IMG/VR virus record: IMGVR_UViG_2519103024_000002
Reading direction: 5' to 3' (one strand)
Origin: a virus
Taxonomy: Duplodnaviria > Heunggongvirae > Uroviricota > Caudoviricetes
DNA: 43,394 nucleotides
Part shown: piece after piece, positions 2,792-36,263 of the stretch
Position numbering within the stretch: position 1 is the stretch's first letter
Layout: every line of letters begins with the position of its first letter
Program-made: the position numbers and the translations under genes
The notes under the pieces: model-generated
Seen by the model: only the letters and a program-made list of their open reading frames with translations
What the model was told of the DNA's origin: nothing
The model's database searches: none

Positions 2792-5700
2792 TCAACTGAT
2801 ACTGATACCGGCTGTAGATTTCTTCATCACAACAACAAGAAGGTCGCTGATACTGGTCGTTGGCGTCCAGTTATTAGCACCATATGAAGAAACATTGAAA
2901 GTCAGGGTGACATGGCCGTGTCCGGCAGGCATATCAATGACTGATGAAAATACCCTGCTGACATCCGTCGCGGGTTGCTGAAAGATTTCCTGTCCGTTCT
3001 TCAGTACCTGCAGCTTACAGGTTGAATACCAGTATGACTGTTGGTTGTTGCTGTTGAAGTTTTCATGCTTACCCCCACGAAACAGAACGGGGGGGACTAC
3101 TATCTGACGGTCAAAAGCCTGGTCATCGTACACAGTGACCGTTATTGTACCGCTGGCATAACTGCCATTTCTCGGAAAGGCTTTTCCCACCGTTTTGACA
3201 ATATCACCTTCAATCTGGTTAGCTGACAGTTTTCCCAGAATCCGACAGTTCTGATTAATCGTGACGTTGTTGAGCGTCCCGGAGTTCGCGTTCACGTTAC
3301 CGCTGATATCCGCATTTTTCGCAGAAAGTCGACCATCAGGTGTCAGTGAAAACGTTGGGGGATTGCCACCGCTGGTAATGGTGGGAGCCGTCAGATATTT
3401 CAGGAACACTTCGTTCATGAATATCTGATCGCCCTGCCCAACAAACATCGGCTTTGTGTTGCCATTCGCAGGATTAATCATCGCAATCCTGTCCGCCGCC
3501 AGCAGCACCTGACTCTGCATACCGTCAGGAGTATTCTCAACACCGGCACCAATACCCGCGATATAAAGGCGTCCGTCCTGCATCTGCTGCAGCTTCACAG
3601 CCCACATGCTGTTCAGGTTATTATTTGTATCAACCTGAACCTTCTGTATCTGCTGGATCGCTGCACTCTGGTCTTCCAGTTTCTTATTGACGGTCTGCGT
3701 GATTTCATTGCTGACACCCGTAATGGACGTCCTGATTTCAGCCAGGTCAGGCGCAAGCTGACCGTTATCAATCTGCGTCCACAACTCCTGAGCCAGATGG
3801 GTTTTCCCTATCTCTCCTTTGAAAAAATTCAGATAGCCGGATGCATCATCACTCGGCTGGCCAACAGCCTCCACAAATGCCGATTTGCCAACGGTGTTCA
3901 CACTGCGGATGTAAAAATAATAATCATGGCCCGGTTTGATATTGATACTGGCGGCTATCCAGTACAGCGCCGTGCCAAGATAGCGTGCTGTGGTTTCAAC
4001 CTGCCTGATATCCGCAATCCGCTTTTCCGAGAACCAGAACTCAAACTGTACCGTCGGATCATAAACCGCAAGATGCGGCGTGGCGGTTATCTGAAAATAC
4101 CCCGGTGTCAGCTCAATCTGCGACGGCGCTGCCGGTGCGGCAATCCGGAACGATACCGATGCCGGATCGCCCTGCTGCCCCCACGCATTTACCGCCCGGA
4201 CTGTCAGCCTGTAGTTCCCCAGCGCCAGTTGCCTGAAGCGGTATGTGGTTTCCGTCGTCCGGGCCGTGCTGACCAGCCGCTCACTGCCGTCATCCGCTGC
4301 CACGGTCAGGCGAAGCATAAAGCTCACCCCCTTCACCACCTTCGGCGTGTCCCAGCGCGCCAGCACCTGATATTCCCCGCTGTCTGCGGTGACTTCGGCA
4401 GTCAGGTGCTGCACCGCTGGCGGCGTGACACCATTCACCGTGCCGCTCTGGTCGCCGTCAAAGTGCGCCCCGTTATCCACGATGGCCTCTTTTTCCGGTA
4501 CATGCTGCACGGCAGTGATGGCATACGTGCCGTCATCGTTCTCACGGATACTCACACAGCGGAACAGGCGCTGGCGCAACGTTGGCAACTTCAGCCCCCA
4601 CACGCTGTATTCTGCAACGCCGTCAGGAACACGGCTCACTTTTACCTTCACGCCGTCGGTGACGGACTGGACCTCCACGCTGACCGGATTCCCCTGTCCG
4701 TCAGCCAGGCTTATCAGCGTGGTGCCGGAGGATGGCAGCGTGATTTCACGGTCGAGCGTCAGTGTCCGCGTCTGGTTGTTCGCCGCCAGCACGCGCCCGC
4801 CGATGCTGATCCCCGCATAGTCATCATCACAGATTTCAATGACATCGCCCGGTACATGGCGAAGCCCTTCTGCACCCACGCTGAAGTCCACGGTCTGCGT
4901 TTCCAGCAGCTCCGTTTAANCAGCCACAGCCCGGNGCGGTGTCGCCTCGCCCCCGGCTCGGTACANNNNNNNNNNNNNNNNNNNNNNNNNNNNNNNNNNN
5001 NNNNNNNNNNNNNNNNNNNNNNNNNNNNNNNNNNNNNNNNNNNNNNNNNNNNNNNNNNNNNNNNNNNNNNNNNNNNNNNNNNNNNNNNNNNNNNNNNNNN
5101 NNNNNNNNNNNNNNNNNNNNNNNNNNNNNNNNNNNNNNNNNNNNNNNNNNNNNNNNNNNNNNNNNNNNNNNNNNNNNNNNNNNNNNNNNNNNNNNNNNNN
5201 NNNNNNNNNNNNNNNNNNNNNNNNNNNNNNNNNNNNNNNNNNNNNNNNNNNNNNNNNNNNNNNNNNNNNNNNNNNNNNNNNNNNNNNNNNNNNNNNNNNN
5301 NNNNNNNNNNNNNNNNNNNNNNNNNNNNNNNNNNNNNNNNNNNNNNNNNNNNNNNNNNNNNNNNNNNNNNNNNNNNNNNNNNNNNNNNNNNNNNNNNNNN
5401 NNNNNNNNNNNNNNNNNNNNNNNNNNNNNNNNNNNNNNNNNNNNNNNNNNNNNNNNNNNNNNNNNNNNNNNNNNNNNNNNNNNNNNNNNNNNNNNNNNNN
5501 NNNNNNNNNNNNNNNNNNNNNNNNNNNNNNNNNNNNNNNNNNNNNNNNNNNNNNNNNNNNNNNNNNNNNNNNNNNNNNNNNNNNNNNNNNNNNNNNNNNN
5601 NNNNNNNNNNNNNNNNNNNNNNNNNNNNNNNNNNNNNNNNNNNNNNNNNNNNNNNNNNNNNNNNNNNNNNNNNNNNNNNNNNNNNNNNNNNNNNNNNNNN

Positions 5701-7224
5701 NNNNNNNNNNNNNNNNNNNNNNNNNNNNNNNNNNNNNNNNNNNNNNNNNNNNNNNNNNNNNNNNNNNNNNNNNNNNNNNNNNNNNNNNNNNNNNNNNNNN
5801 NNNNNNNNNNNNNNNNNNNNNNNNNNNNNNNNNNNNNNNNNNNNNNNNNNNNNNAGCAGCTCCGTTTTAATCAGCCACAGCCCGGCGCGGTGTGCCTGCC
5901 CCCGGCTGGTACAGCCAAAGGCATCCATCTTCGTGACGTTACGACCGTAACGGGCAATGGCCTGCGTGTCCTCCACAAGCTCTGTCGCCGTCTCCCAGCC
6001 GTTATCCGGGTCAATCCAGTTCACCTCAACGGCATTATGGCGGTCTTTCAGGGCGCTGAAGCTGTAGCGGAACGGCGCGCCATCATCCGGCATCACCACA
6101 TTACTGCGGTTATAGGTCCACACCTTATCCGACGGTCGGTCCTGCACGAATGTCAGCGTCTGCCCGTTCCATACCGGCATACAGCGCATCGCCGAGCAAA
6201 AATCACTGAGCACATCCCACGCCTTGCGCTGTGTGGTCAGGTACGCATTACAGGTGATGCGCGGCTCCGTGCCGCCAAAGCCGTCCGGCACTGACTGGTC
6301 GCAATTCTGGCCGATGACATACAGCGCCCATTTATCCACATCTGCCGCACCAAGACGTTTCCCCATGCCGTAGCGCGGATGGGTCAGCATATCCCACAGA
6401 CACCAGGCCATGTTGTTGCTGTATGCTGGCTTAAACGTTCCGTCCCAGATACCGCTGTATTGCCGCGTCTGCGGGTTATAGTTCGACGGCACCTGCAGAA
6501 TGCGCCCGCGAAGATGATAATTACGGCTCACCTGCTGGCTGCCGAACTGCTCCGAGTCCACCTGTACGCCGACCAGTGCCGTGTTCGGGTAGCACTGTTT
6601 CACATCGATGATTTCGGTGTATGACGACCAGAGCGTTTTGTTCTGCAACTGGTCTGTGGTGCTGTCCGGCGTCATCCTGCGCATCCGGATATTAAACGGG
6701 CGCGGCGGCAGGTTATCCACCACCACCGAGGCCAGATACTGCGACGTGGTTTTGCCCTTAATGGTGATGTCTTTTTCCGTCACCCAGCCACCGTTACGTT
6801 GAATCTGAACCAGCAGGCGGACTTCCGATGGATTCCTGTCCCCCTTTGAGGTGGTTTCCACCAGTGCCTGCACGCCGAAAGTAAAACGCAGACGGTCAAT
6901 GTTTGCCGACGTGATGGTCCGGGTGATCGGCGTGTCATATTTCACTTCTGTACCGAGCACCGTCTCGGAGCCGGAGGATTCAAATCCCTCCGGCGGAGTC
7001 TGCTCCTGCTCACCGGCCCGGAACACCACCGTGACGCCGAATATATTGGTATTCCCCTCACTGTCCAGCACCGGCGTACTGTTCAGCAGCACGCTTTTTA
7101 ATCCATCCACCGGACCTTCAACCGGCCCTTCGCTGATGGCGTCTATCACGCTCAGCATCTGGGATGATTTCAGGTTGTCCTTCGCTTCGCGCGGGGTATG
7201 CCCCTTACTGCTGCCTTTACCCAT
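2792..7224 (-). CDS. J: host specificity / central tail fibre protein J, interrupted by an artefactual N-run (4966-5854) with duplicated flanks
   Basis: N-terminus [22 protein letters not shown]... and the join ...[42 protein letters not shown] read continuously when 4905-4965 is overlapped with 5855-5913; matches lambda gpJ. Confidence 0.9.
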
Positions 7225-7284
7225 TCCTCATGCTCCATAAACGATAAAACCGCCCGGAGGCGGTTTCACATAAAACATTTTGCA

Positions 7285-7956
7285 TCAGCGACCAATCACC
7301 ACAACCTGACCACCATCCCCTTCGTCTGCCGTGCTGATCTCCTGAGAAACCACGCGTGACCCCACGCGCATTTCACCGTACAGAACCGGCAGAACATTGC
7401 CCTGGGCAACCATGTTATCCAGTGAGGAGAAATAGGTGTTCTGTTTGCCGTTATCCGTTGTCTGTGTACGGGGAGTTCTGGCTTTCGGTGCCAGCATCTG
7501 CGCCACACCACCGAGCACCATACTGGCACCGAGAGAAAACAGGATGCCGGTCATACCACCGGCCCCAATGGCTGCCCCCCATGCTGCAAGGGTGGCTCCG
7601 GCGGTAAAGAATGATCCGGCAATGGCGGCAGCCCCCAGGACAATCTGGAATACGCCACCTGACTTGGCCCCGGCGACTCTGGGAACAATATGAATCACAG
7701 CGCCATCAGGCAGAGTCTCATGTAACTGCGCCGTTAACCCGGACGTGCTGACGTCCCGCCCGGCAATCCGTACCTGATACCAGCCGTCGCTCAGTTTCTG
7801 ACGAAACACCGGGAGCTGTGTGGCCAGTGCGCGGATGGCTTCAGCCCCCGTTTTCACACGAAGGTCGATGCGGCGGCCAAATCGTTGTAAATCCCCGTAA
7901 AGGCAGATGCGCGCCATGCCCGGTGACGCCAGAGGGAGTGTGTGCGTCGCTGCCAT
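7285..7956 (-). CDS. I: tail tip assembly protein I
   Basis: 223 aa, MAATHTLPLASPGMARICLYGDLQRFGRRIDLRV... essentially lambda gpI; overlaps the 3' end of K as in lambda. Confidence 0.9.
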   Translation of the reverse strand: MAATHTLPLASPGMARICLYGDLQRFGRRIDLRVKTGAEAIRALATQLPVFRQKLSDGWYQVRIAGRDVSTSGLTAQLHETLPDGAVIHIVPRVAGAKSGGVFQIVLGAAAIAGSFFTAGATLAAWGAAIGAGGMTGILFSLGASMVLGGVAQMLAPKARTPRTQTTDNGKQNTYFSSLDNMVAQGNVLPVLYGEMRVGSRVVSQEISTADEGDGGQVVVIGR

Positions 7957-8597
7957 TTGTCGGTATACCTCTCTCGTTTACTCAGTTGTTCAGGAATATG
8001 GTGCAGCAGCTCGCCGTCACCACAGTAAATAGCGGCATGATTCGGCACCGATGAACCAAAGCAGCACAGCAGCACATCGCCCGGCTGCGCCGCTGACAAC
8101 GGCACCTGATACAGCCCTGTGGCCTCCAGATTATCAAGATAGAGATTCTGGCCGTTACGCCACCAGTCATCCTCACGATGAAAGTCCGGCATCTCAATCC
8201 CCGCCAGATGGTAAGCGTCCCGGAACAGCGTGTAACAGTCCGTCACCCCGTGCTCAAAGCGCCGCCCGGTGAGATGCGGCACACAGCGGAACTTATGAAT
8301 CGCCCCCCGGCAGACCAGCCACCACGGCAAATCACTCTGCACCTGCAGCCGCCGGTCGGCCTCACTCAGCCAGGGCAGACCACCGGGATGACTGTGGACC
8401 AGCGCCACAATCTCACCCTGCATCTCTGCCTGCAGCCAGTCCTCCGGAGCCATCCGGAAATACGCCTCCGGCTCACCGGAGATATTCACGCAGGGAAAAT
8501 ATCTTTCCCCCTCCGGCGCTCTCACCACGAAGCCGCACGACTCCGCTGGCGCACATCGCCGGGCATGCGCCAGAATCGCTGATTCTGTCTCTGTCAT
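7854..8597 (-). CDS. K: tail tip assembly protein K (by homology to lambda gpK)
   Basis: 247 aa ORF MTETESAILAHARRCAPAESCGF...HSHPGG...; start codon choice uncertain (an internal start would give a shorter product). Confidence 0.85.
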   Translation of the reverse strand: MTETESAILAHARRCAPAESCGFVVRAPEGERYFPCVNISGEPEAYFRMAPEDWLQAEMQGEIVALVHSHPGGLPWLSEADRRLQVQSDLPWWLVCRGAIHKFRCVPHLTGRRFEHGVTDCYTLFRDAYHLAGIEMPDFHREDDWWRNGQNLYLDNLEATGLYQVPLSAAQPGDVLLCCFGSSVPNHAAIYCGDGELLHHIPEQLSKRERYTDKWQRRTHSLWRHRAWRASAFTGIYNDLAAASTFV

Positions 8598-8602
8598 GGG
8601 AT

Positions 8603-8857
8603 TTACTGCGAAAGTTTGTTAATGGAAAGGAAGCCGCCAAAGTTGCCGACGTTATTGCGAAACTTACAGCCGCTCAGGCATTTGCTGCATTTATCCTTCG
8701 TGATATCGGAATCGGCTGATCATATTCATCCGCGACCGCCGGACCGTGATAACCGCACTCATCACCGCGATAGGTCCAGGTGCAGGTATTAGCCAGCATG
8801 ATGCGCCCCGGAAAAACGGCGACCATCCGTTCCGTCCGGTGTGGACAGTACAAAGGA
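8603..8857 (-). CDS. L: tail tip protein L, 3' portion; 5' end in N-run; reading frame broken (frameshift or sequencing error)
   Basis: Frame ending at 8674 gives ...AVFPGRIMLANTCTWTYRGDECGYHGPAVADEYDQP; a different frame from about 8712 to a TAA at 8603-8605 gives ITKDKCSKCLSGCKFRNNVGNFGGFLSINKLSQ, ending 5 bp before the K start; a third frame at 8820-8857 gives SFVLSTP. Confidence 0.6.
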
Positions 8858-9391
8858 NNNNNNNNNNNNNNNNNNNNNNNNNNNNNNNNNNNNNNNNNNN
8901 NNNNNNNNNNNNNNNNNNNNNNNNNNNNNNNNNNNNNNNNNNNNNNNNNNNNNNNNNNNNNNNNNNNNNNNNNNNNNNNNNNNNNNNNNNNNNNNNNNNN
9001 NNNNNNNNNNNNNNNNNNNNNNNNNNNNNNNNNNNNNNNNNNNNNNNNNNNNNNNNNNNNNNNNNNNNNNNNNNNNNNNNNNNNNNNNNNNNNNNNNNNN
9101 NNNNNNNNNNNNNNNNNNNNNNNNNNNNNNNNNNNNNNNNNNNNNNNNNNNNNNNNNNNNNNNNNNNNNNNNNNNNNNNNNNNNNNNNNNNNNNNNNNNN
9201 NNNNNNNNNNNNNNNNNNNNNNNNNNNNNNNNNNNNNNNNNNNNNNNNNNNNNNNNNNNNNNNNNNNNNNNNNNNNNNNNNNNNNNNNNNNNNNNNNNNN
9301 NNNNNNNNNNNNNNNNNNNNNNNNNNNNNNNNNNNNNNNNNNNNNNNNNNNNNNNNNNNNNNNNNNNNNNNNNNNNNNNNNNNNNNNNNNN

Positions 9392-9694
9392 GCTGAACTC
9401 AACACGCAGCATACTGACCCGCGACGACCATTTTGCGCAGGTCACCTTTATCTGCCTGTAACCATAAGGCGGCGTCCACAGAAAGGCCTTCCAGCCCCCG
9501 TGCTCAGCCAGAAACGACTCCAGCGCCGTGGCCTCCTCACGGGAGACAGACAGCGTCACGCTGTACGTTTTCAGGTCAGCGTTCAGCCCGGCAGGCGCAC
9601 GCTGGGAATAGCCATCACCAAAGCGCACCTCCCTGACGGAAGGAGCCGATGTCACATCCATCCCGGGTTTCACTTTCCAGCGGAAGGTTTTCAT
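9392..9694 (-). CDS. M: minor tail protein M (3' end lost in N-run)
   Basis: MKTFRWKVKPGMDVTSAPSVREVRFGDGYSQRAPAGLNADLKTYSVTLSV...MLRVEFS matches lambda gpM; runs into gap at 9391. Confidence 0.85.
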
Positions 9695-12252
9695 CGTCCA
9701 CCTCCGGAGAACAGACCACCATCGCGCATCTGTGCCTGGATTTCATCACGGGCACCCTTGCGGGCCATGTCATACACCGCCTTCATCATCTGTGGACCTG
9801 GCAGACCATTCGTACCGTCGTTCTGAATCACCACGTTGTTGTTCTGCTCAAACCTGATACCCTCTGAACGCCGCATTTGCGCCGGACTTCCGGTGCCACC
9901 GACATAACCGCCGGTGGCATAGCCGCGCATCAGCCGGTAGAGATTTCCCACGCCAATCCGGCTGGTTGCCTCCTTCGTGAAGACAAATTCACCACGGTGA
10001 ACAATCCCCGCTGGCTCATATTTGCCGCCGGTTCCCGTAAATCCTCCGGTTGCAAAATGGAGTTTCGCCGCAGCGGCCTGAATGGCTGTACCGCCTGACG
10101 CGGATGCGCCGCCACCAACAGCCCCGCCAATAGCGCTGCCGATACTCCCGACAATCCCCACCATTGCCTGCTTAAGCAGAATTTCTGTCATCATGGACAG
10201 CACGGAACGGGTGAAGCTGCGCCAGTTCTGTTCACTGCCGGTCAGCATCGCCGCCATATTCTGCGCAATACCATCAAAGGTCTGCGTGGCAGCACTTTTA
10301 ACCTGCGACATACTGTCCGTGGCACTCTCTTCCCACTCACTCCAGCCGGACTTCAGGCCTGCCATCCAGTTCCCGCGAAGCAGGTCTTCAGCCGCCCAGG
10401 TCTTTTTCTGCTCTGACATGACGTTATTCAGCGCCAGAGGATTATCGCCATACTGTTCCTTCAGGCGCTGTTCCGTGGCTTCCCGTTCTGCCTGCCGGTC
10501 AGTCAGCCCCCGGCTTTTCGCATCAATAGCGGCCCGTTTTGCCCGTTGCTGCTGTGCGAATTTATCCGCCTGCTGCGCCAGCGCGTTCAGGCGCTCCTGA
10601 TACGTAACCTTGTCGCCAAGTGCAGCCAGCTGGCGTTTGTACTCCAGCGTCTCATCTTTATGCGCCAGCAGGGATTTCTCCTGTGCAGACAGCTGGCGAC
10701 GTTGCGCCGCCTCCTCCAGTACCGCGAACTGACTCTCCGCCTTCCACAAATCCCGGCGCTGCTGGCTGATTTTCTCATTTGCTCCGGCATGCTTCTCCAG
10801 CGTCCGGAGTTCAGCCTGAAGCGTCAGCAGGGCAGCATGAGCACTGTCTTCCTGACGATCGCCCGCAGACACCTTCACGCCGGACTGTTTCGGCTTTTTC
10901 AGCGTCGCTTCATAATCCTTTTTCGCCGCCGCCATCAGCGTGTTGTAATCTGCCTGCAGGATTTTCCCGTCTTTCAGTGCCTTGTTCAGTTCTTCCTGAC
11001 GGGCGGTATATTTCTCCAGCGGTGTCTGCAGCCGTTCGTAAGCCTTCTGCGCCTCTTCGGTATATTTCAGCCGTGATGCTTCGGTATCGCTCTGCTGCTG
11101 CGCATTTTTGTCCTGTTGACTCTGCTGTTCAGCCTTCTTTCGGGCGGCTTCAAGCGCAAGACGGGCCTTTTCACGATCATCCCAGTAACGCGCCCGCGCT
11201 TCATCGTTAACAAAATAATCATCCTTGCGCAGATTCCAGATGTCGTCCGCTTTCTTAAACGCAGCCTCTGCCTTAATCAGCATCTCCTGAGCGGTATCAG
11301 GACGACCAATATCCAGCACCGCATCCCACATGGATTTGAATGCCCGTGCTGTCCTGTCTGCCCAGGTTTCCAGCGTGCCCATGTTCTCTTTCAGGCGTCG
11401 GGTCTGGTCATCAAACCCTTTCGTTGCGGCCTCGTTCGCCGCCTGCAATGCCCCGGATTCATCGCCGGAACGCTGCAACTGAGCAACATACGCAATCTGC
11501 TCCGCCGTTACGTTATGGAACTGGCGCGCCATCGCCGTCAGCCCCGACGTCGGGTCAGTGGTCAGCTTCCCGAAGGCTTCAGCGACCTTGTCCACCTCCA
11601 CGCCGGATGCAGAGGAGAAACGCGCCACACTCTGGCTGATGGATGCAATCTGAGCCTCACCGCTTACTCCCGCCTTAACCAGTGCGCTGAGTGACTCGCT
11701 GGTCTGGTTAAACGTCAGCCCTGCCGCCTGCCCGGCTCTGGACAGGACCAGCATACGATCTGCCGTCAGACCCGACTGATTGCCGGAAAGGACCAGCGTT
11801 TTGTTGAAATCGGACAGGGTTGAGTTACCCTGATACCAGGCATACGCCAGCGCACCGGTCGCCACCGCCAGCGAGGTGGCCCCGACCATCGGCAGGGTGA
11901 TCGCACCGGCAAGCCCCCGGAACATGGGGATCATCCCGCCGAAGGAGTCCTTAACCTGACCACCCTGTTGCAGCAGGATCAGCCACGGGCTTTGCCCGCC
12001 TGCAAGCTGCGTGGCCACGTCGGTGAACTGTGCAGGCAGCATACGCATGGCGGCTTTATACTGCCCGACGGAAATCCCCGCTTTCTGTGCAGCCAGCGCC
12101 TGTCGGCTCAGCGACTGTTCAACGACTGCCGCTGTTTTTTTCGCATCACTTTCCGTACCGGAAAAATGACGCCTGACTCTGGCCATCTGCTCGTCAAATC
12201 TGGCCGCATCCAGACTTAAATCAACGACCAGATCGCCTACCGGTTCAGCCAT
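9691..12252 (-). CDS. H: tail tape measure protein H
   Basis: 853 aa, MAEPVGDLVVDLSLDAARFDEQMARVRRHFSG... near-identical to lambda gpH as remembered; same length. Confidence 0.95.
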   Translation of the reverse strand: MAEPVGDLVVDLSLDAARFDEQMARVRRHFSGTESDAKKTAAVVEQSLSRQALAAQKAGISVGQYKAAMRMLPAQFTDVATQLAGGQSPWLILLQQGGQVKDSFGGMIPMFRGLAGAITLPMVGATSLAVATGALAYAWYQGNSTLSDFNKTLVLSGNQSGLTADRMLVLSRAGQAAGLTFNQTSESLSALVKAGVSGEAQIASISQSVARFSSASGVEVDKVAEAFGKLTTDPTSGLTAMARQFHNVTAEQIAYVAQLQRSGDESGALQAANEAATKGFDDQTRRLKENMGTLETWADRTARAFKSMWDAVLDIGRPDTAQEMLIKAEAAFKKADDIWNLRKDDYFVNDEARARYWDDREKARLALEAARKKAEQQSQQDKNAQQQSDTEASRLKYTEEAQKAYERLQTPLEKYTARQEELNKALKDGKILQADYNTLMAAAKKDYEATLKKPKQSGVKVSAGDRQEDSAHAALLTLQAELRTLEKHAGANEKISQQRRDLWKAESQFAVLEEAAQRRQLSAQEKSLLAHKDETLEYKRQLAALGDKVTYQERLNALAQQADKFAQQQRAKRAAIDAKSRGLTDRQAEREATEQRLKEQYGDNPLALNNVMSEQKKTWAAEDLLRGNWMAGLKSGWSEWEESATDSMSQVKSAATQTFDGIAQNMAAMLTGSEQNWRSFTRSVLSMMTEILLKQAMVGIVGSIGSAIGGAVGGGASASGGTAIQAAAAKLHFATGGFTGTGGKYEPAGIVHRGEFVFTKEATSRIGVGNLYRLMRGYATGGYVGGTGSPAQMRRSEGIRFEQNNNVVIQNDGTNGLPGPQMMKAVYDMARKGARDEIQAQMRDGGLFSGGGR

Positions 12253-12695
12253 ACCGGACTCCTCCTGCGATCCCTTCTGATACTGTCATCAGCATTACGT
12301 CATCCTCCGTCATGCCCGCCATATCCGGGGAAGCGGGGATAACTTCATTTCCGTCCGGGTCAAAGCGGACGCCTCCGGTAAGCCCTGCCGCTTTCTGCAT
12401 CAGCACATCATCTTCAGGCTCTTCGTCATCCTCACGCCGGTTCAGCAAACTGAAATCCAGCGGATGCATATCCGGATCGCTGAAAAACAGGCTGAGCACA
12501 GTGTACGTCAGCCCGGAAAAGTGCATATTCAGCAGAACATCATGAAAATAATGGGTACTGTAAAAGCGGTGCCAGTCGGCATACTCCGTGGATGACATCC
12601 CGGCAAGCATGGCGCGCCAGTCAGGTCGCCCCATCTCTCGCGCCAGTTTCAGGGCAAAACTCAGCTCACCGTCGAACACTTTCCCGCAGAAACAG
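12245..12695 (-). CDS. T: T segment of the G-T tail assembly chaperone, expressed by -1 programmed frameshift from G
   Basis: Frame -1 relative to G, open from the slip site: GKVFDGELSFALKLAREMGRPDWRAMLAGMSSTEYADWHRFY...; no independent ATG or SD; classic lambda G-T arrangement; coordinates approximate at the 5' side. Confidence 0.85.
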
Positions 12696-13083
12696 GCTCT
12701 GCAGGCCCGGAGTCCTCTGCCTGGTCAGGGGCATCATTCACCACAAACCCATACATACCGGACAGCCGGTACACCACGTTTTCAGCATGAGAAATTGCCT
12801 CCGCGGGCCAGGTGGTAAGCACTTCCTGCTCAATCTGTTTAACGGCTTCATTCATGGAAGGCTGCTTTGTCTTCTGCGGATGGTTATGCCACAGGGACAT
12901 CGCCACCACAAAAGCACCGGTTCTGATGGCGTCTTCCACAGTAACCTGCCGGTTGCTGTCTGACTCCGCCTGTTCTGCCTGCTGTTTCATCAGGGCGAGA
13001 TGCTCAATACGCTGCAGGGCTGACAGTTCAGAAAGCGTGACGGTCACGCCGTTATGTTCAAATGATTCGGTTTTCAGGAACAT
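12661..13083 (-). CDS. G: tail assembly chaperone G
   Basis: 140 aa, MFLKTESFEHNGVTVTLSELSALQRIEHLALMKQQ... lambda gpG; ends ...PVSAGKCSTVS with slippery heptamer near the 3' end. Confidence 0.9.
   Translation of the reverse strand: MFLKTESFEHNGVTVTLSELSALQRIEHLALMKQQAEQAESDSNRQVTVEDAIRTGAFVVAMSLWHNHPQKTKQPSMNEAVKQIEQEVLTTWPAEAISHAENVVYRLSGMYGFVVNDAPDQAEDSGPAEPVSAGKCSTVS
12679..12685 (-). other. programmed -1 ribosomal frameshift slippery heptamer G GGA AAG (G to G-T)
   Basis: Heptamer GGGAAAG read directly on the minus strand, in G frame as G-GGA-AAG, 6 codons before the G stop; the -1 frame continues as T. Confidence 0.85.
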
Positions 13084-13098
13084 CGCTGACTCTCCGGA

Positions 13099-13839
13099 TT
13101 AACTGTCGGTGACAGTGATTTCTGCAACCGCAGCAAGTTCACCATTACCGGATACAACCGGAATGTTGACCTTGCCTGCAGCAACGCCGTTCACGGTGAT
13201 GGTCATACCACTGACCGACACGGTGGCTTTTGTTTTATCCGCTGACACCGCACGGAAGCTCTTGTCAGTTGCGCCCTCCGGCTGGAAGGCCACGGTCAGC
13301 GTGGTGCTCTGCCCTTTCACCACCGAGGAGCTGGCAGGCGTCACGGTCATACCGGTTGCCGCCGTCACCGTACTGCGATCTTCTGCCATTGACGGACGGC
13401 CCACATTGGTGACCTTCACCGTACGGGTGATCACTTCCTTCGCCGTCACCGCCTTACCGATACTGCTGACCCAGCCACGGAACACATCGACCGTGCCGTT
13501 CGGGAAGCGGATTTTATAGGCACGGGTATCACCTTCATTAAACCACGCCAGCAGCGCCTGCTGCCCCTGCTCTCCGGGCATCCACGCCAGCGTGAAGCTG
13601 GTATCTCCGGCGGATTTCTGCCCCTGCCCGGTCGCGGTCCAGTCCGCATCTTCATCATCGAGATAACTGTCGTCATAGGACTCAGCGGTCAGTTCGCCGG
13701 GCGTCAGGTCTTTAATTTTTGCCAGACGCGACCAGTCATTGTCTGAAAGCGGGTTTGCATAAGGGTCGCCGCTCCCGTTATAAACCCACAGTGTGGTCCC
13801 GGCCCCTTTCACCGGTGCCAGAGGATTTGGTGTTGGCAT
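13099..13839 (-). CDS. V: major tail tube protein V with C-terminal Ig-like domain
   Basis: [33 protein letters not shown]... matches lambda gpV; C-terminal ...[44 protein letters not shown] is Ig-like; ORF track start 13869 is probably upstream of the true ATG. Confidence 0.9.
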
Positions 13840-13846
13840 ATCGTCC

Positions 13847-14242
13847 TCACATTTCATAGGTAATGACATAAGTCAGATCGGCTGAACTCCACAGGCCCGC
13901 ATCATCGTCGCGCCGGTAGTCATAGCCACTGGCCACCATACTGGTGATCAAATCTGACAGTGCCGGGATATCGCTCATCACCGGATAAATCCGGGACTCC
14001 ATCCACGAATCCAGCTCTGAATCCGGCACCTGAGCAGGCAGGAAAACTTCAATATGCAGCTCCGCCTGCCAGGTATCGCTGTCCAGCTCTTCGCCCGTGT
14101 ATTCAGCGCCGGTGAGATAAACGGCAATTGCCGGAAAATCTTCCTCATCAAAAACAGCAGGGCGACCATCAAAAAGCGTCGCCCCGGTGTCATGCTTCTC
14201 CAGTGCATCCAGTACGGCTGCACGGAGTTCAGTATGTTTCAT
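13847..14242 (-). CDS. U: tail terminator protein U
   Basis: 131 aa, [51 protein letters not shown]... lambda gpU. Confidence 0.9.
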
Positions 14243-14817
14243 CGCTTTATTACCATTCTCAGTTGATGCTGCAGCGCATAGCCCAGCTCTTTCGGAAGAC
14301 GCTCACGCCGTATCCGCTCAATATTCTGTTTAAACGCCGTGGTCAGCGGCACCGCCATCGGGATTTTCACCACATCAATGGGGTAACGGTTTTTCCCGGC
14401 CACACGCTGCATGACATGCCACCGGCCATTTTTCAGTTGCTGAATAAACGCGCCGGGAATACGACGGTTTCCCACCACAAGCACGCTGCCGCCACCTTTC
14501 AGGGATGAACGCTGCCCCTTTTTACGACGCCTGCGTCGGGACAGGACAACCCGCGCGTTACCCAGCCTGATTACGGGCAAATCCCCCCGGTTAACTTTGA
14601 TTCTGGCCTGCGGATTTTTGACCGTGGCCCTTTTCAGCCTGGCCCTTTCCTTTACCAGTTTCCGGCGTACCTTTGTCTCACGGGCAACCAGTGACGCCGA
14701 CTGCGATATCGCGGATGAAGCAACGCGGTTAATGGCCATTGCGGCGGCACCAGGCACTGCCGTTTTGCTGATACGGCTGAGGTTTTCAACGGCCTGCTCA
14801 AGACCTTTTATGGCCAT
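14239..14817 (-). CDS. Z: tail completion protein Z
   Basis: From internal ATG: MAIKGLEQAVENLSRISKTAVPGAAAMAINRVASSAISQSAS... lambda gpZ (192 aa). Confidence 0.9.
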   Translation of the reverse strand: MAIKGLEQAVENLSRISKTAVPGAAAMAINRVASSAISQSASLVARETKVRRKLVKERARLKRATVKNPQARIKVNRGDLPVIRLGNARVVLSRRRRRKKGQRSSLKGGGSVLVVGNRRIPGAFIQQLKNGRWHVMQRVAGKNRYPIDVVKIPMAVPLTTAFKQNIERIRRERLPKELGYALQHQLRMVIKR

Positions 14818-14828
14818 ACATCCCCCTT

Positions 14829-15182
14829 TCAGCGGCGACGGCTGGCGGCAGGTGGTTGCCCCCGGTTGAGCCAGAGATAACAACTCCCTCCGTCATCCGG
14901 AGAAACACGGTCCACCCAGAACATCTCGCCGTTAATGGTCAGCGTGTCACCACGCCGTACAGCACAAACCGTATCCGTAAGCACAAATAATGACGGGTTA
15001 CTTCCTTCAATACGGATCCCACTACTGGCAAAACCCAGCGACTCCGGATCGTCAAAAACGCCATGAACCTCGCCGCCACGCTGTGCACCGGAGGTGAACT
15101 GCGCACTGATGCCCATCACTTCAACAATCGTACTGTCCACCCCGGCAAGGGCGGCATCAAAGGCATTCTGAAAATCACGCAT
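14829..15182 (-). CDS. FII: head-tail connector protein FII
   Basis: MRDFQNAFDAALAGVDSTIVEVMGISAQFTSGAQRGGEVHGVFDDPE...VDRVSPDDGGSCYLWLNRGQPPAASRRR lambda gpFII. Confidence 0.9.
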   Translation of the reverse strand: MRDFQNAFDAALAGVDSTIVEVMGISAQFTSGAQRGGEVHGVFDDPESLGFASSGIRIEGSNPSLFVLTDTVCAVRRGDTLTINGEMFWVDRVSPDDGGSCYLWLNRGQPPAASRRR

Positions 15183-15549
15183 AAACAGCCATTCCACCAT
15201 CAACGTGTGTTTTTGCATCTGAGGACATAATCAGAATCACCCGACCAACATCCGCAAGCTCAACGGATTCCCCCGTTTCACCATCAACGCCACAGAGATG
15301 GAGGCAGGTCAGAACTCTGATGCGCGTTAACGCGCCGGATGTTTCCTCACGAACATCATGAGCCGCGGTTTCCCGCTCCCGGATATCCATATTCATAACC
15401 TGTACATCATCGCCGGATGACTGCATTTCCTCTTCCCATTCTGCCACCCGCTGCGCTATCTCTGCGGCACTCCCGGATATATCCGGCTCACGCCCCAGAA
15501 TCAGGGCCAGTTCATCAAGCCGTTTCAGATTTTGCTCTTTCGTTGCCAT
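15175..15549 (-). CDS. FI: DNA packaging protein FI
   Basis: MATKEQNLKRLDELALILGREPDISGSAAEIAQRVAEWEEEMQ... lambda gpFI-like; ATG at 15549 preceded by a GGGGG Shine-Dalgarno-like stretch. Confidence 0.85.
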   Translation of the reverse strand: MATKEQNLKRLDELALILGREPDISGSAAEIAQRVAEWEEEMQSSGDDVQVMNMDIRERETAAHDVREETSGALTRIRVLTCLHLCGVDGETGESVELADVGRVILIMSSDAKTHVDGGMAVYA

Positions 15550-15561
15550 ATCAGCCCCCTG

Positions 15562-15592
15562 TGAAAAAAGACACGGGGGCATTTCGCCCCCG
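15562..15592 (-). terminator. intrinsic terminator-like hairpin between E and FI
   Basis: Minus strand reads CGGGGGC-GAAAT-GCCCCCG followed by TGTCTTTTTTC; lies in the 51-nt gap between the E stop and FI start. Confidence 0.6.
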
Positions 15593-15600
15593 CTCACGGA

Positions 15601-16629
15601 TTATTTCACCTGTACCACCACAAACTCATCCGGGTCCGGCAACACCATCAGCGGCGCGGACTGCGTCATGGTAAATTCACGGGCGGGATCCCCTACCGTC
15701 AGCCAGTGTTTCGGATAACGGGAAGAGGCCACCACACCTTCGGACAACGCCTGAGCATCCTGAATGGCACCGTAACAACGGATCCCATCTGCAGCAGTAT
15801 TCCCCAGAACCAGCATGCCATCTGGAAGATAACGTTTTTCGGTACCGTCTTCTGCTATATAAGACGTTTTCGCCACCACAATGGCCAGATCGCCGTAATA
15901 CCCCTTGAAGGACACCACTGCGCCCAGATCTTTCACTGCCGTTTCGAGTTGAGAATTTGAACCGCGACGGGTATCCAGTTTTTCGCGGAACAGCTTAAAA
16001 CCATTCAGAAGACGCCAGACGGTACCGTCCATAATGGCAATATTCACAAGACCGCTGGCCAGGTCGCAGTAGAGGTCAATATCATGTGTAGGATCGAACG
16101 TGTCACGATCCTGTTTTGACCACTCCTTACCACTACCCTGAGTGATGTTATTCTTCGTCGACCTGCCAAAATCGACCTCAATTTTCTCGAACTGGTCTCC
16201 TTCCATGGTGTATTTGCCATACAACACAGCATTTACCGCCTGCATTTCTTCCACCTGGACAATCGCGTGCTCTTCCTGTTTGAGGTTATCGGTAATGATA
16301 CGCAGACGGCGGTAAGCCGGATCATTCAGTTGAGATGGATCTTCACCAGGAAGGCGCTCAACCGCCTGCTGGTAATTAAATTCGTGTTTCGGCTTGACGT
16401 AGCCCGGACGCAACACGCGGGTTTCACCACCACGATGACGCAGCACTTTTCCTTCAACAACCGGGGAGACATAGGCCGCCACCGGCGTTTTTCCGGTAAT
16501 TTTGTCCAGCATCACCTCTTCGGTATGGAAATTCACCGTACGGCGGAAAAACAGCTCCAGAAACAGCGCACGAAATTTAACTTTTTGTTCGGTATAACCG
16601 AGTAACTGGCGGGTCGTAAACAATCCCAT
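15601..16629 (-). CDS. E: major capsid protein E
   Basis: 342 aa, ...PGYVKPKHE...EEMQAVNAVLYGKYTM...KLDTRRGSNSQLETAVKDLG...TQSAPLMVLPDPDEFVVVQ lambda gpE. Confidence 0.95.
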   Translation of the reverse strand: MGLFTTRQLLGYTEQKVKFRALFLELFFRRTVNFHTEEVMLDKITGKTPVAAYVSPVVEGKVLRHRGGETRVLRPGYVKPKHEFNYQQAVERLPGEDPSQLNDPAYRRLRIITDNLKQEEHAIVQVEEMQAVNAVLYGKYTMEGDQFEKIEVDFGRSTKNNITQGSGKEWSKQDRDTFDPTHDIDLYCDLASGLVNIAIMDGTVWRLLNGFKLFREKLDTRRGSNSQLETAVKDLGAVVSFKGYYGDLAIVVAKTSYIAEDGTEKRYLPDGMLVLGNTAADGIRCYGAIQDAQALSEGVVASSRYPKHWLTVGDPAREFTMTQSAPLMVLPDPDEFVVVQVK

Positions 16630-16686
16630 AAATCAGTTCCTTTCATTCAGAAATCAGTCAGGCCACCGCGGTGGCCTGATAACGTG

Positions 16687-17034
16687 TTACGGCAGCGCCG
16701 CGTGACTCAGGGCACTGCCAGCAAAGGCGTTGGCCTTTTTGTGTTCATCCACACTTTCAGGCCAGTGGATTGCCTCCGTCGCAAAGGTTCCCGACTTGTA
16801 ATACGTCAGCGCCGTCTCTGTGCCTTCAAGCGGCAGTACCAGTATGCCAACCGCACTACCGGCTTTCTGTCCGTCCCAGACCACCAGTTTCCCGGTGGCT
16901 TCATCCAGCATCAGGGGCGTCAGTGCCGGTGTTGGCGAGGAAATCCCGCTGCTGCCTGTGGCGGTATGAGCCGGATCATTACCGGCAAAAATACGTACTT
17001 CCGCACGCTGTTCAGTGATGGTTTTCGTCACCAT
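16687..17034 (-). CDS. D: head decoration protein D
   Basis: 115 aa, ...NDPAHTATGSSG...TPLMLDEATGKLVVWDG...GILVLPLEG...YKSGTF... lambda gpD-like. Confidence 0.9.
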   Translation of the reverse strand: MVTKTITEQRAEVRIFAGNDPAHTATGSSGISSPTPALTPLMLDEATGKLVVWDGQKAGSAVGILVLPLEGTETALTYYKSGTFATEAIHWPESVDEHKKANAFAGSALSHAALP

Positions 17035-17070
17035 ATTGTAAAAACCTCCTATTGATGGTCAGCACTGACT

Positions 17071-17904
17071 TCATGGCATGGCCATGAGCATTTTCACGTC
17101 CGCATCACCGTCTGCTGACGTCTGTGCCACGCCACCCCGCACCGCTGCCGGTGAATGGTTCGCCATGAAATGTTCAAACATGGCGGTTGTGGATGCAGAG
17201 ACCGGTTCTGCCTTACCTGATCCCGCAGCCAGCACAGCCCGGGCGCTCTCCACTGTCATTCCCGGGCAGGCAGCCAGCTGTTCAGCCTGCGCCTCAGCCC
17301 CTTTTGCCTCATCCAGTGCCATGATCTGATCACGGAGTGATGGTCCGGCATCCGCCTGCGGTGAAGCAGCCAGGATCGGGCGGGCTTTTTCCACCGTCAT
17401 CTCCGGCATCGCCGCCAGCGTTGCCGCCAGTTGTTCACGACCGTTCGCTTCTTCACACACCATAATGCGATCGGCTTCACTCTGCGTGGATGCCACCGGC
17501 TGCTGCGGTGCCGCCGCGGCCAGAATCGCCCGGGCCTGTTCAACGCTCATGCCCTGTTGTCCTGCCAGCATCGTGGCAAGCTGTTCACGTCCTTTCGCTT
17601 CCTGGCATGTCAGGATCCCCATCACTCGCTGGTTCTCCTGCGCGGCGGCTTCCGTTGCAGTTAATTGCGGCATAGTGCCTCCTCTGACATTACTGTTCAG
17701 CGCCGTGGCCATCACACTGATGGCATCCGACGCATTGATTAATTCATCCGCCAGCCCGGCCTCAATGCCGGACTGACCTTCAAAAACGGCAGCCTCTGTT
17801 CCCGTGACGGCATCAACAGACAGACCGGTATACATCGCCACTTTTTCGGCAAACATCCGGCGCGCCGCATCAATCCGCTGCTGCATGTCCTGGCGAACCT
17901 GCCG
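17071..17904 (-). CDS. C: capsid assembly protease C / scaffold Nu3 (C-terminal ~278 aa; 5' part in N-run)
   Basis: ...VAMYTGLSVDAVTGTEAAVFEGQSGIEAGLADELINASDAISVMATA... then repeated Ala-rich scaffold segments ending ...DADVKMLMAMP; position between B and D. Confidence 0.85.
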   Translation of the reverse strand, partial: RQVRQDMQQRIDAARRMFAEKVAMYTGLSVDAVTGTEAAVFEGQSGIEAGLADELINASDAISVMATALNSNVRGGTMPQLTATEAAAQENQRVMGILTCQEAKGREQLATMLAGQQGMSVEQARAILAAAAPQQPVASTQSEADRIMVCEEANGREQLAATLAAMPEMTVEKARPILAASPQADAGPSLRDQIMALDEAKGAEAQAEQLAACPGMTVESARAVLAAGSGKAEPVSASTTAMFEHFMANHSPAAVRGGVAQTSADGDADVKMLMAMP

Positions 17905-18754
17905 NNNNNNNNNNNNNNNNNNNNNNNNNNNNNNNNNNNNNNNNNNNNNNNNNNNNNNNNNNNNNNNNNNNNNNNNNNNNNNNNNNNNNNNNNNNNNNNN
18001 NNNNNNNNNNNNNNNNNNNNNNNNNNNNNNNNNNNNNNNNNNNNNNNNNNNNNNNNNNNNNNNNNNNNNNNNNNNNNNNNNNNNNNNNNNNNNNNNNNNN
18101 NNNNNNNNNNNNNNNNNNNNNNNNNNNNNNNNNNNNNNNNNNNNNNNNNNNNNNNNNNNNNNNNNNNNNNNNNNNNNNNNNNNNNNNNNNNNNNNNNNNN
18201 NNNNNNNNNNNNNNNNNNNNNNNNNNNNNNNNNNNNNNNNNNNNNNNNNNNNNNNNNNNNNNNNNNNNNNNNNNNNNNNNNNNNNNNNNNNNNNNNNNNN
18301 NNNNNNNNNNNNNNNNNNNNNNNNNNNNNNNNNNNNNNNNNNNNNNNNNNNNNNNNNNNNNNNNNNNNNNNNNNNNNNNNNNNNNNNNNNNNNNNNNNNN
18401 NNNNNNNNNNNNNNNNNNNNNNNNNNNNNNNNNNNNNNNNNNNNNNNNNNNNNNNNNNNNNNNNNNNNNNNNNNNNNNNNNNNNNNNNNNNNNNNNNNNN
18501 NNNNNNNNNNNNNNNNNNNNNNNNNNNNNNNNNNNNNNNNNNNNNNNNNNNNNNNNNNNNNNNNNNNNNNNNNNNNNNNNNNNNNNNNNNNNNNNNNNNN
18601 NNNNNNNNNNNNNNNNNNNNNNNNNNNNNNNNNNNNNNNNNNNNNNNNNNNNNNNNNNNNNNNNNNNNNNNNNNNNNNNNNNNNNNNNNNNNNNNNNNNN
18701 NNNNNNNNNNNNNNNNNNNNNNNNNNNNNNNNNNNNNNNNNNNNNNNNNNNNNN

Positions 18755-20336: not shown

Positions 20337-20699
20337 AACCTCACTNNNNNNNNNNNNNNNNNNNNNNNNNNNNNNNNNNNNNNNNNNNNNNNNNNNNNNN
20401 NNNNNNNNNNNNNNNNNNNNNNNNNNNNNNNNNNNNNNNNNNNNNNNNNNNNNNNNNNNNNNNNNNNNNNNNNNNNNNNNNNNNNNNNNNNNNNNNNNNN
20501 NNNNNNNNNNNNNNNNNNNNNNNNNNNNNNNNNNNNNNNNNNNNNNNNNNNNNNNNNNNNNNNNNNNNNNNNNNNNNNNNNNNNNNNNNNNNNNNNNNNN
20601 NNNNNNNNNNNNNNNNNNNNNNNNNNNNNNNNNNNNNNNNNNNNNNNNNNNNNNNNNNNNNNNNNNNNNNNNNNNNNNNNNNNNNNNNNNNNNNNNNNN

Positions 20700-21175
20700 G
20701 ACACCAGAACCCCACACCGGNGGAAAAACGCTTCAGGGTCGAGCGTATTATTCGCGGTGTTTTCTTCCGACCATGGAGCCAGCTCCAGCAATGCAGGAAC
20801 ATCCCTTATCGTTGGCTCAACATGAGATTTCATAAAATCTTCAGCAGCTGAGTCCGTGGGCTGAAAAAGAAGGCTGTTGCGTGATTTATGCTCAATAAAA
20901 TAAGCCTCCACTCCCAGCAACATCTTTGTATAACCAACACGGGCAGATTTAATCAGGTTAACCGTGCGAATCAGATCGTTGCCCATACAGTTCATGATGC
21001 CAACCTGAAACGGCAGTGTTTCCCATCGCCCCGGGGTATAAGACGACTCTTTAGGAAGGTAATAATGTTTATTGGCCCACTGAACTGTCGTCAGTGGAAC
21101 AGGAATAATGAGAGATAAAAGCCCTGTAGCTATCGCACCGGCTGCATTAGCTGCCTTCTGCGCGTCTGAAATCAT
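20700..21175 (-). CDS. A: terminase large subunit A, N-terminal ~150 aa only; rest (and gene W) missing in the N-run; frame break near the contig edge
   Basis: ...[78 protein letters not shown]...[18 protein letters not shown] matches lambda gpA; after APW the match continues in another frame (..KRFS.GVGFWC); n at 20721. Confidence 0.85.
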
Positions 21176-22973: not shown

Positions 22974-23281
22974 TTTTATTCCTACGGGTCTTATTCTGAC
23001 AATATATCCTGTGTTCCAGACTGCCACATCACCACATCCTGTGCCATTATCTGACTCACATTACATACATCGCATCGGGATACAGTAGTAGCACTTTCTG
23101 TAATACAGCTTCCTGTTTCTTCCACCATCGCACCGGGATAAACCCGCGAATCATTAACGCGGTAAAAACCCGGTGTGCATCGTTTTAATTATTCCCGCAC
23201 ACTCACGCAGAAGGAATTCCCCGTCGGGCTACGGTCATGGTTAATGCGGGAATACGGCGACGATACAGCGCAGCTAAAAGG

Positions 23282-23286
23282 GTAAT
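23282..23286. repeat. IS2 target-site duplication (left copy, GTAAT)
   Basis: GTAAT immediately outside the IS2 left end; identical pentamer at 24981-24985. Confidence 0.8.
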
Positions 23287-23377
23287 TAGACTGGCCCCCT
23301 GAATCTCCAGACAACCAATATCACTTATTTAAGTGATAGTCTTAATACTAGTTTTTAGACTAGTCATTGGAGAGCAG

Positions 23378-23717
23378 ATGATTGATGTCTTAGGACCGGA
23401 GAAACGCAGACGGCGTACCACACAGGAAAAGATCGCAATTGTTCAGCAGAGCTTTGAACCAGGGATGACGGTCTCCCTCGTTGCCCGGCAACACGGTGTG
23501 GCAGCCAGCCAGTTATTTCTCTGGCGTAAGCAATACCAGGAAGGAAGTCTTACTGCTGTCGCCGCCGGAGAACAGGTTGTTCCTGCCTCTGAACTTGCTG
23601 CCGCCATGAAGCAGATTAAAGAACTCCAGCGCCTGCTCGGCAAGAAAACGATGGAAAATGAACTCCTCAAAGAAGCCGTTGAATATGGACGGGCAAAAAA
23701 GTGGATAGCGACGACGC
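23378..23717 (+). CDS. insC: IS2 transposase OrfA (InsC), 3' end in N-run
   Basis: [56 protein letters not shown]... matches IS2 InsC as remembered. Confidence 0.9.
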
Positions 23718-24619
23718 NNNNNNNNNNNNNNNNNNNNNNNNNNNNNNNNNNNNNNNNNNNNNNNNNNNNNNNNNNNNNNNNNNNNNNNNNNNNNNNNNNN
23801 NNNNNNNNNNNNNNNNNNNNNNNNNNNNNNNNNNNNNNNNNNNNNNNNNNNNNNNNNNNNNNNNNNNNNNNNNNNNNNNNNNNNNNNNNNNNNNNNNNNN
23901 NNNNNNNNNNNNNNNNNNNNNNNNNNNNNNNNNNNNNNNNNNNNNNNNNNNNNNNNNNNNNNNNNNNNNNNNNNNNNNNNNNNNNNNNNNNNNNNNNNNN
24001 NNNNNNNNNNNNNNNNNNNNNNNNNNNNNNNNNNNNNNNNNNNNNNNNNNNNNNNNNNNNNNNNNNNNNNNNNNNNNNNNNNNNNNNNNNNNNNNNNNNN
24101 NNNNNNNNNNNNNNNNNNNNNNNNNNNNNNNNNNNNNNNNNNNNNNNNNNNNNNNNNNNNNNNNNNNNNNNNNNNNNNNNNNNNNNNNNNNNNNNNNNNN
24201 NNNNNNNNNNNNNNNNNNNNNNNNNNNNNNNNNNNNNNNNNNNNNNNNNNNNNNNNNNNNNNNNNNNNNNNNNNNNNNNNNNNNNNNNNNNNNNNNNNNN
24301 NNNNNNNNNNNNNNNNNNNNNNNNNNNNNNNNNNNNNNNNNNNNNNNNNNNNNNNNNNNNNNNNNNNNNNNNNNNNNNNNNNNNNNNNNNNNNNNNNNNN
24401 NNNNNNNNNNNNNNNNNNNNNNNNNNNNNNNNNNNNNNNNNNNNNNNNNNNNNNNNNNNNNNNNNNNNNNNNNNNNNNNNNNNNNNNNNNNNNNNNNNNN
24501 NNNNNNNNNNNNNNNNNNNNNNNNNNNNNNNNNNNNNNNNNNNNNNNNNNNNNNNNNNNNNNNNNNNNNNNNNNNNNNNNNNNNNNNNNNNNNNNNNNNN
24601 NNNNNNNNNNNNNNNNNNN

Positions 24620-24969
24620 ACGAGCTTCCGGCGTCTCCAGTAGAGTGGCTGACGGATAATGGTTCATGCTACCGGGCTAATGAAACACGGCAGTTTGCCC
24701 GGATGTTGGGGCTTGAACCGAAGAGCACGGCGGTGCGGAGTCCGGAGAGTAACGGCATAGCAGAGAGCTTCGTGAAAACGATAAAGCGTGACTACATCAG
24801 TGTCATGCCCAAACCAGACGGGTTAACGGCAGCAAAGAACCTTGCAGAGGCGTTCGAGCATTATAACGAATGGCATCCGCATAGTGCACTGGGTTATCGC
24901 TCGCCACGGGAATATCTGCGGCAGCAAGCCAGTAATGGGTTAAGTGATAACAGGTGTCTGGAAATATAG
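24620..24969 (+). CDS. insD: IS2 transposase OrfB (InsD), C-terminal fragment after N-run
   Basis: ...[59 protein letters not shown]...[12 protein letters not shown]... (DDE transposase C-terminus). Confidence 0.85.
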
Positions 24970-24980
24970 GGGCAAATCCA

Positions 24981-32225: not shown

Positions 32226-33121
32226 AAATCCACCCCGTAAATCCAGTCAGTGTTTGTCAGGTCGAGTTTTGGTTTGCAGGCTGTCACACCTGCCTGTTGC
32301 TTGTTACGGTTGATTTCGAGCTGGGTCCACTTGTCGCGGAGTTTGGCCGGGCTCAGCACGTTACCGGACCAGAAGTTGTCCTGGCATGCCCAGCGGAACA
32401 GTACACACATGTCGCGATGGTTACGTCCGTCACGTTCACGCATCAGGCGGATATCGTTAGCCCACCCTGCAAAATTCGGTTTTCTGGCTGATGGCGCGAT
32501 GGTCTTCACCATGTCAAACATCCATTCTGCGGCGGTCAGGTCTTCTGCTGTCCCCCACTTGCTGCCGCTCTGAATTGCAGCATCCGGTTTCACCACAGAA
32601 AGGTCGTTTTCTGGCTGGTCAGAGGATTCGCCAGAATTCTCTGACGAATAATCTTTTCTTTTTTCTTTTGTAATAGTGTCTTTTGTGTCCCCCTGTTTTG
32701 AGGGATAGCAATCCCCCAATTTGAGGGATGTTTTATCCCTCGTTTTAGGGGATTTTCCCTCGTTTTGAGGGATACACCATTCTGAGATGTTTTTATTTGG
32801 TCCAAACATGCCGCCTTGCTGCTTGATAATATTCATTCTGACGAGTTCTAACTTGGCTTCATTGCACCGTTTGACGGGTAACTTTGTAATCTCGCTAAGT
32901 TGAGAATCGGTGATTCTGTCCATTGGTTTATTCCATCCATAGGTTTTACGCAGAATGGCAAGCAGCACTTTAAACTGTCGCTTGGTCAGATCTGCGCCTG
33001 AATAAGCCTCAAGCAGCATATTTGATAGTCTGGCGTAACCATCATCGAGATCTGCCACATTACGCTCCTGTTTGGCAAAGTTACCTCTGCAGAAGTTGAG
33101 TATTTTTGCTGTATTTGTCAT
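32222..33121 (-). CDS. O: replication initiator O
   Basis: 299 aa MTNTAKILNFCRGNFAKQERNVADLDDGYARLSNMLLEAYSGADLTKRQFKVLLAILRKTYGWNKPMDRITDSQ... = lambda O; contains the ori iterons. Confidence 0.95.
   Translation of the reverse strand: MTNTAKILNFCRGNFAKQERNVADLDDGYARLSNMLLEAYSGADLTKRQFKVLLAILRKTYGWNKPMDRITDSQLSEITKLPVKRCNEAKLELVRMNIIKQQGGMFGPNKNISEWCIPQNEGKSPKTRDKTSLKLGDCYPSKQGDTKDTITKEKRKDYSSENSGESSDQPENDLSVVKPDAAIQSGSKWGTAEDLTAAEWMFDMVKTIAPSARKPNFAGWANDIRLMRERDGRNHRDMCVLFRWACQDNFWSGNVLSPAKLRDKWTQLEINRNKQQAGVTACKPKLDLTNTDWIYGVDL
32645..32773 (-). repeat. ori-lambda: four O-binding iterons (32685-32773) plus adjacent AT-rich unwinding region (32645-32684), inside O
   Basis: Four tandem ~19-23 bp repeats visible on the plus strand: gtgtccccctgttttgagggata / gcaatcccccaatttgagggatgt / tttatccctcgttttaggggat / tttccctcgttttgagggat, next to ctgacgaataatcttttcttttttcttttgtaatag. 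Confidence 0.9.
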
Positions 33122-33175
33122 AATGACTCCTGTGGATTGATCCAGTAATGACCTCAGAATTCCATCTGGATTTGT

Positions 33176-36218: not shown

Positions 36219-36263
36219 GCTCTTTAAACAACGTCGACTCTCGACTACGTGGCTGAAAAGCCA
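36219..36263 (+). promoter_or_regulatory. nutL (boxA GCTCTTTAA plus boxB stem-loop UGGCUGAAAAGCCA)
   Basis: GGCTCTTTAAACAACGTCGACTCTCGACTACGTGGCTGAAAAGCCAG between PL and N; GAAA-type loop on a 5-bp stem; paralleled by the site after cro. Confidence 0.7.

Follow-up and report, generated by a model that had tools for sequence, protein, structure and literature searches.

The tail tip gene L in the window (the whole 43,394-nt stretch of DNA that was analysed) is almost certainly no dead gene, and the break in its reading frame is very probably the product of a low-quality contig-end consensus in a scaffolded draft, i.e., an ordinary draft-assembly artefact. This reading is favoured because the lesions are exclusively indels, without substitutions, and are confined to the final 146 nt of a 3,003-nt contig that is identical everywhere else, and because they occur in no other record searched and the same damage is found at other contig ends. 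A scaffold gap interrupts L, and the terminal 150 or so bases of the contig with its 3' end would represent a poor-quality, probably single-read, consensus, in which four base-calling or assembly errors (+1, -1, +1, -1) would move the coding sequence between two frames and generate apparent stops. In the organism, L would be one continuous 232-codon gene, and its product would be a normal gpL-type tail tip protein with a four-cysteine [4Fe-4S] binding domain. That the differences arose in sequencing or assembly rather than in the cell is what we infer from the sequence, as is the type of reads that underlies the record.

By its sequence, the window is recognised as a scaffolded draft of an icd-integrated lambdoid Escherichia coli prophage that carries iss and adjoins sitABCD. 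The prophage extends from 43394, at the far end of the window, where the integrase gene lies, to tail fibre genes close to the start of the window, and is virtually identical to its counterparts in finished phylogroup B2 genomes (ATCC 11775, S88, and related strains), except for an insertion sequence (IS) and the differences at contig ends. The only four substitutions relative to the finished ATCC 11775 prophage in 39 kb are located at 4782, 17138, 17140, and 18764, which places the source isolate very close to the lineage of the E. coli type strain.

The fragment of L in the window comprises codons 149-232 and the stop codon at positions 8603-8857 on the minus strand, and these last 255 nt contain four single-base indels as recorded. 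The encoded part is the iron-binding domain at the C terminus of a protein of the lambda gpL type, as is apparent from a match to the Pfam family PF05100 (Phage_tail_L). The repaired fragment of 84 amino acids scored 125 bits (E=3e-36, profile positions 121-206), compared with 54.8 bits for the piece in frame 2 as recorded and 334.5 bits for the full-length L of ATCC 11775, at a cut-off of 25 bits (the Pfam gathering score). The gene order in the window is lambda-like, M-L-K-I-J, downstream of the tape measure gene and entirely on the minus strand, and the tail tip genes occur in the identical order in annotated relatives. The L stop codon (8605-8603) is followed 5 nt further on, on the minus strand, by the start codon of K at 8597; K (7854-8597, minus strand) is a tail tip gene encoding a C40-family peptidase, which is intact and identical to the reference. 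The list of open reading frames placed I at 7285-7956, J from 7224, and H at 9691-12252, all on the minus strand. The 5' part of M (codons 1-101) occupies 9392-9694 on the same strand, according to this list and the alignment, and enters the gap; its contig end at 9392 showed zero differences in the alignment to ATCC 11775.

In the C-terminal domain of lambda gpL, the cysteines C173, C182, C205, and C212 hold a [4Fe-4S] cluster on the tail tip's outer surface (PMC10721106, citing Tam et al. 2013). The codons for all four of these cysteines are intact in the window, within positions 8666-8784 on the minus strand (C173 at 8784-8782, C182 at 8757-8755, C205 at 8689-8687, and C212 at 8668-8666), although as recorded C173 and C182 lie in one frame and C205 and C212 in another. 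Full-length reference L could be aligned from residue 1 to 232, end to end, with lambda gpL (PF05100; PDB 8IYK, 8K35; chain 8iyk_L) with 5 substitutions, and the repaired fragment is co-linear with it over residues 149-232, where the presence of H185 instead of S185 is the sole difference; the four cluster-binding cysteines of lambda gpL are all present. The window departs from lambda gpL in that its coding sequence is distributed over two frames by the four indels and in that codons 1-148 are hidden under N. The record thus holds no single continuous L open reading frame, the frame being broken and codons 1-148 consisting of N; this absence is attributed to sequence errors and would be a fault of the record, not necessarily of the gene.

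Three-frame translation of the minus strand of 8603-8857 revealed that the last 84 codons of L are split between two reading frames. Frame 1 opens with SFVLSTPDGTDG, its full piece reading SFVLSTPDGTDGRRFSGAHHAG, and continues past TDG as RRFSGAHHAG before it reaches a stop at 8791-8789. Frame 2 carries AVFPGRIMLANTCTWTYRGDECGYHGPAVADEYDQP before its stop at 8676-8674 and ends with ERMVAVFPGRIMLANTCTWTYRGDECGYHGPAVADEYDQPIPISRRINAANA, after which frame 1 resumes with ITKDKCSKCLSGCKFRNNVGNFGGFLSINKLSQ and terminates at the stop codon of 8605-8603. The initial annotation had described broken L frames next to a contig end, and the translation reproduced the three pieces, with a run of N starting at 8858; its identification of the gene as L, its frames, and its approximate indel positions were correct. 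It had the first piece of frame 1 end directly in a stop, and this piece does exist, but ten further codons (RRFSGAHHAG) precede the stop.

Alignments to CFT073, S88, and ATCC 11775 located four single-base indels, the positions of which are given here in plus-strand coordinates, with distances counted from the contig end at 8857. An extra base at 8836 (21 nt from the contig end) converts minus-strand CCGACG to CCGGACG, a missing base at 8831-8832 (26 nt) converts GAAAC to GAAC, an extra base at 8821 (36 nt) converts GGTGCC to GGTCGCC, and a missing base at 8711-8712 (146 nt), in codon T197, converts CCGACTTCC to CCGATTCC. The first extra base together with the missing base at 8831 replaces T156-E157 by D-G and keeps the frame; the motif PDGT, which had been taken as part of the protein, is the product of this pair, and every relative reads PTET. 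From G160/A161 onward, the insertion at 8821 puts the true frame out of register, so that the stop at 8791-8789 is exposed, and the deletion at 8711 restores the original register, so that this pair places codons 161-196 in the other frame. The net length change of the +1/-1/+1/-1 series is zero. Indels had been anticipated around 8820-8840 and at 8712, which is approximately where they were found, but their actual number is four, not two or three. The suggestion of homopolymer-type errors holds clearly for 8831, the only indel that shortens an existing homopolymer run (AAA to AA), and loosely for 8836, which doubles a single G; it fails for 8821 (GGT-GCC to GGTCGCC) and 8711 (GACTTCC to GATTCC), which are not in repeated bases.

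The contig that carries the L fragment (5855-8857; 3,003 nt) displayed 0 substitutions and 4 single-base indels relative to CFT073, S88, and ATCC 11775, with no difference from these genomes in its remaining 2,857 bases, and the chance that four random differences would all fall within 146 nt of that contig end is approximately 6e-6. Once the four indels are removed, the sequence matches the annotated intact L of ATCC 11775 (WP_001152660.1) exactly at both the DNA and the protein level, and the repaired DNA is also identical to gene L of the finished S88 and CFT073 genomes. Likewise, L of the icd-integrated lambdoid prophage of ATCC 11775, S88, CFT073, APEC O1, and others (WP_001152660.1) is identical in DNA to the window copy over 8603-8857 without the indels, the differences being the four indels and an IS3-family insertion elsewhere in the window copy of the prophage. 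L is encoded as one uninterrupted frame in every relative, lambda included, and the four indels are the sole differences of the segment from the nearest genomes.

The L segment is present in 4,303 of the 5,426 complete E. coli genomes, often in multiple copies (median 2, maximum 11 per genome), and the L-K-I-J stretch has a median of 3 copies per complete genome; the other L copies are 90-97% identical and differ mainly by substitutions. The top identity of the L segment among the 5,426 genomes was 98.5%, which corresponds exactly to the four indels, and the same ceiling of 98.5% was encountered in a phage collection of 50,697 records. None of the four indels was found in any of the 4,303 complete E. 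coli genomes that bear the segment, or in any of 174 phage records. Moreover, an exact 37-mer over three of the indels had zero matches in GTDB representative genomes, IMG/VR, and JGI metagenome contigs.

The window contains five long N runs and three isolated N calls. For a comparison across its whole length, the window was cut at the long N runs and each contig was aligned to ATCC 11775, which yielded 4 substitutions, 13 indels, and 3 N in 39,069 aligned bases. Eleven of the 13 indels are located at most 150 nt from an N run, a zone that represents 3.8% of the sequence (binomial p=1.9e-14). Three contig ends are damaged: J has 4 indels and 2 N at 4965, L has 4 indels at 8857, and the terminase large subunit gene has 3 indels and 1 N at 20700, so that N base calls accompany the indels at the first and the last. 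Genuine divergence, by contrast, has a different appearance, as 101 substitutions but not a single indel separate contig 9392-17904 from S88.

The contig end in J (4907-4965, minus strand) contains 3 insertions, 1 deletion, and 2 N in a three-way alignment, which also revealed that 4907-4965 and 5855-5913 both represent one 59-nt segment of J, the copy at 5855-5913 being clean. Because both flanks repeat this stretch, the 889-N gap at 4966-5854 is false: the flanking contigs overlap in the three-way alignment and in their reference coordinates. What maps to a single stretch of J has thus been read twice, and the clean and the damaged version differ, at a contig end, by lesions of the same kind. 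The terminase large subunit gene has 1 N, 2 insertions, and 1 deletion within 70 nt of the gap (20700-20770); no complete E. coli genome exceeded 98.0% identity over this stretch, the damage is private to the record, and it is the same artefact as at L.

The scaffold gap in L itself (8858-9391) is written as 534 N, and the real sequence is 470 nt long, covering the final 8 codons of M plus L codons 1-148; its flanks map to positions 10286 and 10757 of the ATCC 11775 locus and to positions 36249 and 35778 of S88. The N runs of 534, 889, 850, and 354 compare with true distances of 470, -59, 676, and 1,631 nt, respectively, the latter two being the runs at 17905-18754 (850 N for 676 nt) and 20346-20699 (354 N for 1,631 nt). 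This mismatch indicates that the N runs are rough scaffold estimates and not masking. Deliberate masking was rejected, as the lengths disagree with the reference distances and one run covers an overlap. The contig breaks are situated inside conserved phage structural genes (J, L, portal, and terminase) and in an IS element. Low-coverage scaffolded drafts with poor contig ends have the same indels and N calls within approximately 150 nt of gaps, the same unmerged overlapping contig ends, and the same estimated gap lengths that are unlike the true distances, and no feature of the window sets it apart from such drafts.

The initial annotation had left the choice between a pseudogene and a contig-edge error, and the data strongly favour the error and lend no support to the pseudogene or cryptic-prophage reading. 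According to the latter, the indels would exist in the cell, L would be inactivated, and no tails would be built by what would then be a cryptic or defective prophage. In its favour, the sequence as written has the frame 1 stop at 8791-8789 and the Fe-S ligand cysteines split between frames, and related prophages have a few annotated pseudogenes; as a counterpoint to the error reading, the finished genomes of the lineage include annotated real pseudogenes, i.e., a frameshifted zapA-like gene and a truncated tail-fibre gene. The IS insertion that is absent from the references gives the window copy some history of its own, and since this extra IS3-family element means that the source is not the finished ATCC 11775 genome, a private mutation is formally possible. 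Nevertheless, a true pseudogene is very unlikely, considering that four indels and no substitution in 255 nt stand beside 2,748 nt of the contig that match perfectly, and that the lesions lie 21-146 nt from a contig end when two other ends show the same damage and carry N calls. Furthermore, none of the indels occurs in any other record searched, and a +1/-1/+1/-1 series that leaves the length unchanged is what base-calling jitter typically gives; if four independent mutations had produced it, this would be a strange coincidence. The lesions were not reproduced in a related lineage (among 4,303 genomes, 174 phage records, and, for the 37-mer over three of them, three contig collections), and they were found neither independent of assembly features nor accompanied by other decay, as all are within 146 nt of the end of a contig with 0 substitutions. 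Very unlikely, too, is that the indels are real and private, a very recent local burst of small indels (e.g., by error-prone repair) having inactivated L and cut out the Fe-S domain; if true, the prophage, which carries virulence-linked iss and lies next to sitABCD, would have taken a new step towards domestication or decay.

A consensus at the contig end that is mixed with reads of a second, similar lambdoid prophage (a collapsed repeat) would fit with the multiple copies of L (median 2, up to 11) and of L-K-I-J (median 3) per genome, and with contig breaks in conserved phage genes and an IS, where repeat-induced breaks are expected. The paralogues, however, are 90-97% identical with mainly substitutions, while only indels are found here, which makes such mixing highly improbable; it would still be an assembly artefact and lead to the same conclusion of an intact L. 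Lambda-type tail gene clusters use a programmed -1 frameshift at G/GT, and in relatives the annotations of G and T overlap, which provides a precedent for programmed ribosomal frameshifting or recoding as a means to read through the frame changes in L. This would require two opposite shifts at sites that are private to the record, and its probability is vanishingly small; it was rejected since the two-frame arrangement is not conserved, L being a single frame in relatives and lambda.

The frame break in L is very probably not a biological feature, and its analysis discloses no new biology; the value lies in a caution against calling the prophage defective on basis of this record. In automated annotation of the scaffold, L, J, and the terminase large subunit gene would come out as frameshifted or truncated, and the prophage might be scored as defective, when the evidence points to an essentially intact copy of a type that is common in phylogroup B2 E. 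coli. In addition, the N runs are unreliable as gap sizes, as one of them hides a 59-nt overlap and another, of 354 N, stands for 1.6 kb.

Several further observations concern the remainder of the prophage. Positions 23287-23717 and 24620-24980, separated by the N run at 23718-24619, are the two ends of an IS3-family (IS2-like) element, which is located between a TonB-family gene and iss and is absent from S88 and ATCC 11775. Its flanks have a 5-nt overlap in the reference that looks like a target-site duplication, and the junction of flank and IS (window 23250-23717) is matched in one piece by some complete genomes, e.g., CEA212U. In replication gene O (window about 32708-32761), S88 (L004 13063-13079) lacks about 66 nt and its gene is annotated as frameshifted, and the window agrees with ATCC 11775, in which the gene is intact.

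Only two indels, at 23182 and 33202, are not close to a contig end. The former is an intergenic single-base deletion relative to ATCC 11775, separated from the IS junction by about 100 nt and from the gap by 535 nt. The latter, 8.6 kb away from any gap, is located in cII (minus strand, about 33154-33451) and consists of a run of 7 T as opposed to 6 in all complete E. coli genomes; it is private to the record, and being far from gaps it demonstrates that contig ends do not explain every indel of the record. The extra T shifts the last approximately 15 codons of cII from NKKRPAATERSEQIQMEF to NKKTPGGNRAF, and is either a miscalled homopolymer or a genuine frameshift of this lysogeny regulator that is private to the record.
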